Below, piece by piece: positions 881-1,267 of a DNA stretch of 17,600 bases (the stretch's first letter is position 1; each line of letters starts with the position of its first letter). Below the pieces are notes generated by a model. The model worked only from the letters and a program-made list of their open reading frames with translations. It was not told where the DNA came from and did not search any database. The DNA lies in the UHGV virus genome UHGV-0195027, one strand, 5' to 3'. Both the position numbers and the translations under genes were made by a program. The DNA is from a virus.

Positions 881-1267
881 GTGAAAAAAATAAGTTCAGT
901 AATAATTCTTTGTGTGTCATTTTTTGTTCTGCAAGGATGTAGTGACTCTAAACACCTAAAACAAACTACTAATACTAATACTAATACTATGGATTCAGAA
1001 CAATATCAATATATGAAGCAATGTATAAAGAACGCAAATGCACTGGTAAATCTTAATGAGAAATATAAAAGCACATTGAAAGAAATTCATTTTCTTATTA
1101 GTGAAGCTAAATCTTACGCTACAAGTAATGTCTCCAGTTATGTGGAAAAAACAATTACACCCTTGTTCGAGTATAAAATAAATTATAAATGTAATGAGAT
1201 TGAACAAGAGCTTATTGAAGAGTACAATAATAAGATTCAATCCGCATCGGTGGTTAAGGTGCGATAA
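881..1267 (+). CDS. putative lipoprotein
   Basis: GTG start at 881 preceded by GAGG (871-874). N-terminal signal peptide ending in lipobox L-Q-G-C. Very AT-rich. Stop overlaps the next start (TAATG at 1265-1269), suggesting an operon. Confidence 0.55.
   Translation: MKKISSVIILCVSFFVLQGCSDSKHLKQTTNTNTNTMDSEQYQYMKQCIKNANALVNLNEKYKSTLKEIHFLISEAKSYATSNVSSYVEKTITPLFEYKINYKCNEIEQELIEEYNNKIQSASVVKVR

Follow-up and report, generated by a model that had tools for sequence, protein, structure and literature searches.

Gene pair at the locus

The window, that is, the whole 17,600-nucleotide stretch of the UHGV virus genome UHGV-0195027 that was analyzed, carries a short gene for a predicted lipoprotein and, overlapping its stop codon, a longer partner gene. 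The features of both genes are listed in Table 1. Based on the translation, the product of the first gene begins with VKKISSVIILCVSFFVLQGC, which reads as a basic n-region, a hydrophobic core, and a lipobox. In other words, VKKISSVIILCVSFFV precedes LQG and Cys20, with KK, a hydrophobic stretch, and FFVLQGC in the order of a lipoprotein signal. By eye, this sequence agrees with the PROSITE PS00013 pattern, in which Gln is permitted at -2. Moreover, LQGC is invariant in 19/19 diverse homologues (Q17, G18, and C19 when the first residue is not counted), and lipoprotein signal models match the N-terminus weakly in a profile scan. The KK, the hydrophobic stretch, and the invariant lipobox support the lipoprotein identity that an earlier note on this DNA had proposed. 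Under the +2 rule, a Ser at +2 sends a lipoprotein to the outer membrane via Lol sorting. Here, Ser +2 and Asp +3 suggest outer-membrane sorting, and the predicted lipoprotein is probably anchored in the outer membrane.

Table 1. Features of the lipoprotein/partner locus in the window.
Feature	Position	Strand	Basis or description
Internal EAL-domain gene fragment	794-869	+	blastn against L005 and L009
GAGG ribosome-binding site	871-874	+	6 nt 5' of GTG; read from the sequence
Lipoprotein gene, 128 aa	881-1267	+	GTG start at 881, TAA stop at 1265-1267; ORF list
Signal peptide with lipobox LQGC	881-940	+	Cys20 codon at 938-940; translation
Predicted disordered tether, residues 21-39 (SDSKHLKQTTNTNTNTMDS)	941-997	+	between the acylated-Cys position and the first helix
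Perfect TACTAA array	967-989	+	Tandem Repeats Finder: period 6, 3.8 copies, 100% matches
Conserved three-helix domain with TPLFEYKINYKC motif, Cys48 and Cys104	998-1264	+	alignment, AlphaFold2
TAATG stop/start overlap	1265-1269	+	couples the lipoprotein gene to the partner; sequence
Partner gene, 313 aa	1267-2208	+	signal peptide, coiled-coil stalk, Mip/FkpA-like helical and FKBP-fold C-terminal half
Coiled-coil repeat of the partner, 105 nt (35 aa), about 1.5 copies	1472-1625	+	repeat search, spacing 105

The open reading frame of the lipoprotein is absent from the RefSeq/PLSDB feature tables of nine near-identical plasmid loci. Despite this missing annotation, it is a real gene, as judged from its homology, its invariant positions, the selection on its C-terminal domain, the AlphaFold2 domain, and the annotated orthologues. 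A homologue search returned 99 proteins, which belong to E. coli, E. marmotae, E. whittamii, Salmonella, and Klebsiella oxytoca, and UniRef calls some of these proteins 'Lipoprotein'. Homologues as distant as ~40% identity retain the lipobox, both cysteines, and the TPLFEYKIN motif, and Cys48, Cys104 (full numbering), and this motif are invariant in an alignment of 19 diverse members. For the C-terminal domain, dN/dS is 0.06-0.08 at a dS of about 2 against four chromosomal alleles. Furthermore, the orthologous frame is annotated in Escherichia chromosomes and in Klebsiella, and the chromosomal orthologues have ATG at the codon equivalent to the GTG (MKKMSSV...). An antisense open reading frame at 995-1318 (107 aa) overlaps the conserved sense gene, has no support of its own, and was rejected as spurious.

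Scanned against Pfam and NCBIfam, the lipoprotein yielded sub-threshold noise with no family above the cut-off, and a PDB sequence-profile search gave nothing below E 0.4. Similarly, when the helical domain was compared with the PDB in Foldseek, the matches were just generic helical hairpins (E >0.8), so the fold is uninformative on function. With no Pfam or NCBIfam cut-off reached and no informative PDB match in sequence or fold, the family is uncharacterized.

The hexanucleotide array and the predicted tether

Positions 965-991 read ACT ACT AAT ACT AAT ACT AAT ACT ATG, preceded by the codons AAA CAA at 959-964. In the reading frame of the gene, the array takes the form (ACT AAT)3 ACT at 968-988, which fills codons 30-36 and encodes TNTNTNT between Thr29 and Met37. 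The repeat starts nine residues past Cys20. The earlier note had described an (ACTAAT)3 microsatellite encoding a TNTNTNT linker at this position, and its coordinates, unit, and peptide are all exact. The array is the longest of the short-period perfect tracts in the window, and a period-6 tract of at least 23 nt appeared in 0 of 300 dinucleotide-preserving shuffles (longest 16, mean 12.8). The array is thus more than a chance occurrence. An N-glycosylation sequon in the TN tract was considered and rejected, as NTNT gives no N-X-S/T in register, the third position being N.

To place the array in the protein, we used an AlphaFold2 model and the family alignment. In the model, pLDDT is below 50 for residues 1-36, while residues 39-126 form a confidently predicted three-helix domain, with pLDDT above 90 for the helices and block values of 89-98 over residues 41-120. 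The prediction therefore has the layout of a disordered-linker lipoprotein, with an unstructured segment followed by a folded domain. In the alignment of 19 members, the linker segment is the sole indel-rich, length-variable part. Both the low pLDDT up to residue 36 and this restriction of length variation bear out the linker role that had been assigned to the repeat. Collectively, these predictions place the TN array in a segment that is predicted to be disordered and that links the lipid anchor to the folded domain.

Copy number in near-identical alleles

The near-identical allele set comprises the window and nine plasmid records that match it at 98-100%. The array has three TACTAA units in the window and in E. 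coli M10 plasmid A, four in L005, five in L006 and L007, six in L003, L004, and L008, 20 in L009, and 22 in L002. Outside the array, all residues are identical in 10/10 alleles, and the frame is intact in 10/10. Further counts came from the members of the 90%-identity protein cluster of the window allele, in which the shorter protein length for each unit count is the identical allele annotated with a later start codon. Two units were found in proteins of 126 and 118 aa (6 + 1 contigs), three units in proteins of 128 and 120 aa (50 + 4 contigs), four units in proteins of 130, 122, and 130 aa and one partial (32 + 6 + 1 + 1 contigs), and five units in proteins of 132 and 124 aa (28 + 2 contigs). 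These counts indicate that the window carries the modal, three-unit allele of its lineage, and the minimum seen is two. As three units lie near the lower limit for appreciable slippage, the window allele may be fairly stable.

Two pairs of loci reveal how rapidly the array changes. L006 and L008, plasmids of isolates from one UK poultry farm, differ by one TACTAA as the sole difference across 7.1 kb. Similarly, L012 and L014, chromosomes of two water or sediment isolates, differ by one AATACC as the sole difference across 8.7 kb. In both pairs, the array change preceded any point substitution across 7-9 kb. The array thus behaves as a variable-number tandem repeat (VNTR), with perfect head-to-tail copies in 2-22 units that change faster than point substitutions. 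The earlier note had expected repeat-number changes to alter tether length without breaking the frame and had proposed a comparison of repeat number across alleles. In that comparison, the number is not invariant; it ranges from 2 to 22, with 3-22 units in ten otherwise identical, in-frame proteins and 2-5 units in the clusters.

One alternative is that the open reading frame is spurious or an assembly artefact, with copy differences arising as sequencing errors in a low-complexity tract. The lack of a coding sequence here in nine plasmid feature tables and the origin of the 20- and 22-unit arrays from one assembly each (CP098932.1 and NZ_CP101270.1) would fit such a view. However, all length differences between alleles are multiples of 6, and the 2-, 3-, 4-, and 5-unit alleles each recur in many independent contigs. 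Moreover, the low dN/dS, the retention of the lipobox, Cys, and TPLFEYKIN to ~40% identity, the confident AlphaFold2 domain, and the orthologues annotated in chromosomes and Klebsiella all stand against it. The artefact is thus largely refuted by selection, conservation, structure, and recurrence of alleles, and we regard it as highly improbable.

A phase-variable contingency locus, in which slippage toggles the lipoprotein and, through coupling, its partner, was also weighed, as a perfect, copy-number-polymorphic repeat lies in the 5' coding part of a gene near adhesin genes. However, the unit has 6 nt and lies inside the coding sequence. Since 6 is a multiple of three, slippage never switches the lipoprotein gene off, and the frame is intact in each of the 16 DNA alleles and in every full-length protein allele examined, regardless of copy number, with no frameshifted allele seen. 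Neither a frame shift nor a change in promoter spacing was found. Phase variation is therefore effectively refuted and barely credible.

Orthologues and deeper evolution of the linker

Orthologues in six Escherichia chromosomes share 63-74% protein identity with the window allele; at the nucleotide level, the lipoprotein gene is about 73-83% identical. At the matching position, these orthologues have either AATACC in 11-14 copies or AATACT in 11 copies, and GATACT x3-4 and GATATT x1-2 often come next. Elsewhere in the family, the linker segment consists of NA, SA, DT, or DI dipeptide repeats, or of repeats of 6-9 residues such as SGANAN... or NVTGTSAN.... In the K. oxytoca branch, which is about 40% identical, nearly all proteins have 134 aa, and the linker is non-repetitive (TNIKKTDSALIKKDVSQTEQPA). 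Across the family, the segment from Cys to the first helix spans about 18 to about 70 residues. Codon use is uniform inside each array (ACT/AAT in the window, AAT/ACC elsewhere), which indicates amplification at the DNA level and not selection for the Thr-Asn peptide as such.

Genomic context

Upstream of the gene pair, the window matches L005 in two separate blocks: 794-869 corresponds to L005 4361-4436, inside the EAL coding sequence, while 869 onward corresponds to L005 5301 onward (blastn). Approximately 864 nt are missing relative to L005 and L009, and the deletion, which ends 12 nt 5' of the GTG, took the 3' part of the EAL-domain gene and the entire intergenic region. Because the native promoter region was deleted, lipoprotein expression in the window context is uncertain. 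A promoter scan gave weak candidates with only 9/12 consensus matches (e.g., 738-765), in counts that barely exceed those of shuffles. PGAP labels the EAL leftover a frameshifted pseudogene, and the lipoprotein frame is absent from all plasmid annotations.

The composition of the pair is also distinct, with 29% GC in the lipoprotein gene and 35% in the partner gene versus 48% in the whole window. The low GC of 881-2208 is consistent with horizontally acquired DNA. On plasmids, the pair lies 3' of an F4 (K88)-type fae operon. In chromosomal Escherichia (L010, L011-L015; environmental and wild-animal isolates), it lies directly 3' of an S6 (SPATE) autotransporter in 5/6 loci, and in the sixth, strain A30, it lies 3' of an autotransporter remnant and the fae operon (faeI-faeJ). 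Collectively, this placement suggests that the lipoprotein/Mip-like module travels with secreted virulence-type genes.

The window as a whole falls into two parts. Positions 1-3946 are plasmid-type fae DNA, whereas 3946-17600 contain ISEc12 istAB, P2-like tail genes (tail fibre assembly, sheath, tube, tape measure, and gpD), and fieF, and match APEC chromosomes at 96-97%. The junction is an IS21-family element, which implies either that an IS mediated the fusion of a plasmid with a chromosome or that the assembly was joined across a repeated IS. Just 5' of istA, Tandem Repeats Finder also reported an imperfect 23-nt repeat at 3964-4039 (3.3 copies, 63% matches), which probably belongs to the IS21-family terminal repeats.

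This setting bears on another reading of the array, namely, that a surface-exposed lipoprotein varies in size or antigenicity in response to immune or phage pressure, like the size-variable surface lipoproteins of Mycoplasma or Neisseria. The locus is AT-rich relative to the window and mobile, it adjoins fimbrial (fae) and SPATE/autotransporter virulence-type genes, and its linker quickly diverges into many repeat types. However, the conserved domain evolves under strong purifying selection (dN/dS 0.06-0.08) and shows no trace of diversifying selection, and a short Thr/Asn dipeptide repeat would be a poor candidate for a dominant epitope. We regard antigenic variation as very unlikely.

The partner protein

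The pairing of lipoprotein and partner with overlapping stop and start codons is conserved, Klebsiella included; in the chromosomal Escherichia loci and in Klebsiella oxytoca, the overlap is a 4-nt ATGA. In a Foldseek search with its predicted structure, the partner matches Legionella Mip (1fd9, E 1.1e-8) and E. coli FkpA (1q6u, E 4.6e-8) best; 8bjd and 7dek are also among the hits, with all four at E 1e-8 to 1e-7 over ~208 aligned columns. AlphaFold2 pLDDT is 85-95 for partner residues of about 210-313. The predicted structure thus has an FKBP_N-type helical domain followed by an FKBP fold. At the sequence level, the FKBP_N match (E 0.0038) is below the Pfam cut-off, the FkpA match is also weak, and Pfam FKBP_C gives no match even at E 0.1, so membership in FKBP_C is not indicated. 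By eye, without a formal alignment, the Trp and Asp positions of the FKBP active site are not conserved. The 200 C-terminal residues therefore resemble Mip/FkpA in their predicted helical N-domain, long helix, and FKBP fold, whereas the partner differs from these proteins in the missing FKBP_C match, an N-terminal coiled-coil stalk of variable length, and a dedicated lipoprotein encoded alongside.

The stalk contains the second repeat of the operon. In the window, its copies lie at 1472-1520 and 1577-1625, and in other alleles, the 105-nt repeat reaches up to 10-12 copies (BLAST). Across the plasmid and chromosomal Escherichia loci, the partner coding sequence ranges over 837-2019 nt in steps of 105, which gives the operon two independent in-frame length-variable repeats. 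Many database entries of the partner are incomplete, as short-read assemblies probably break within the 105-nt repeat. After the partner signal peptide, a motif is conserved, while the following stalk is not: DFLSDLLKLDIS in the window (1339-1392, residues of about 25-42), GDFLDNIKKLEIK in K. oxytoca (L016 8402-10318), and SFLSDISKLETK in a soil metagenome contig (L019 8411-8659). This N-terminal motif, with the conserved pattern DFLSD..KL.I, is a candidate for the site at which the lipoprotein docks.

Two length-variable repeats in coupled genes raise the question of adaptive tuning, in which the unit number would be selected to fit the length of the coiled-coil partner or the dimensions of the envelope, with the two VNTRs as an adjustable ruler. 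In addition to the presence of independent in-frame repeats in both genes, the two loci with the shortest linkers (three units) also have the shortest partners, at 278 and 313 aa, and other outer-membrane lipoproteins depend on linker length (bioRxiv 10.1101/2021.01.05.425367). Linker and partner length correlate with a Spearman rho of 0.57 at a nominal p of 0.02 over 16 non-independent loci, which hints at length selection; however, these loci fall into few clonal groups, and the p value is therefore inflated. Individual loci also depart from the trend: L005, at four units, has the longest partner among the plasmids (663 aa), L002 combines 22 units with a 558-aa partner, and K. oxytoca combines a 22-residue linker with a 638-aa partner. 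Adaptive tuning is thus unlikely in our judgment.

Proposed explanation

We consider it quite likely that the array is a slippage-prone in-frame VNTR in the disordered tether of the lipoprotein, which changes tether length only and is mostly near-neutral. Tandem arrays of this kind change through slipped-strand mispairing, and mismatch repair in E. coli corrects six-base loops poorly. Strand slippage inserts or deletes whole TACTAA units, as the single-unit differences between otherwise identical loci show. Each unit lengthens or shortens the tether by one Thr-Asn dipeptide, and the distance from Cys20 to the three-helix domain is all that varies. The role of the linker would depend on its length and disorder rather than on its sequence, which we infer because relatives have NA, SA, DT, or DI repeats, longer repeats, or no repeats at all in the corresponding segment. 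Within a permitted range assumed to be about 18 to 70 residues, length variation would probably be mostly near-neutral.

Judging purely from the coupling of the two genes, the helical domain is probably where the translationally coupled, Mip/FkpA-like partner docks. If so, tether length would set the distance of the partner from the membrane. In reviews, FkpA is said to be a periplasmic chaperone for the SPATE EspP, which makes a tethered chaperone role of the module reasonable as an idea. In its boldest form, the pair would be a mobile chaperone or adaptor module tethered to the outer membrane that travels with SPATE and F4-type fimbrial genes, and its two VNTRs would jointly tune the reach of the FKBP-like head in the periplasm or outward. 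We rate this form as decidedly unlikely; if it were true, the TN tether and the 35-aa coiled-coil stalk would constitute an evolvable molecular ruler.

Relation to known systems

A literature search on this gene pair, or on a hexanucleotide VNTR in an E. coli lipoprotein, found nothing specific. The element itself is of a well-known kind, an in-frame VNTR, while the lipoprotein family is previously undescribed. In-frame 6-bp VNTRs serve for MLVA typing of enteric bacteria such as Salmonella Typhimurium and E. coli O157. Like these, the present array is a perfect coding array that changes stepwise between close strains, keeps the frame, and occurs on chromosomes and plasmids. Unlike these, it has a defined structural context, the predicted disordered tether of a lipoprotein, and orthologues of ~70% identity carry arrays at the equivalent position. 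The present locus is not known to belong to a typing scheme.

In-frame tandem repeats also vary the length of other lipoproteins, namely, the size-variable surface lipoproteins Vlp/Vsa of Mycoplasma and Lip/H.8 of Neisseria (AAEAP repeats). In those cases, the repeats account for a large share of a protein that is exposed at the surface, and they have been connected with immune evasion, whereas the repeat here is a short tether beside a strongly conserved domain.

The closest structural parallel is provided by the linkers of RcsF, Pal, and NlpD, which likewise extend as an unstructured segment from the acylated Cys and sorting residues to a folded domain. Linker function in such proteins is reported to depend on length and disorder and not on sequence (El Rayes et al., bioRxiv 10.1101/2021.01.05.425367; for Pal, PMC12826056). 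[quoted passage not shown] The linker of the window allele, at about 19 residues, is shorter than this >22-residue class. Furthermore, the RcsF, Pal, and NlpD linkers are not reported there as tandem arrays, whereas the linker here is a hypermutable repeat.

Significance

These findings leave current understanding intact. The locus is a ready-made high-resolution marker that could separate very recent plasmid lineages, because a single unit was all that distinguished plasmids from the same farm. The alleles also form a natural series of tether lengths, from about 18 to 58 residues with the rest of the protein identical, which is usable for questions of Lol sorting or reach. Finally, the results point to a two-gene module, a lipoprotein and a Mip/FkpA-like protein with a variable stalk, that RefSeq has missed on plasmids.
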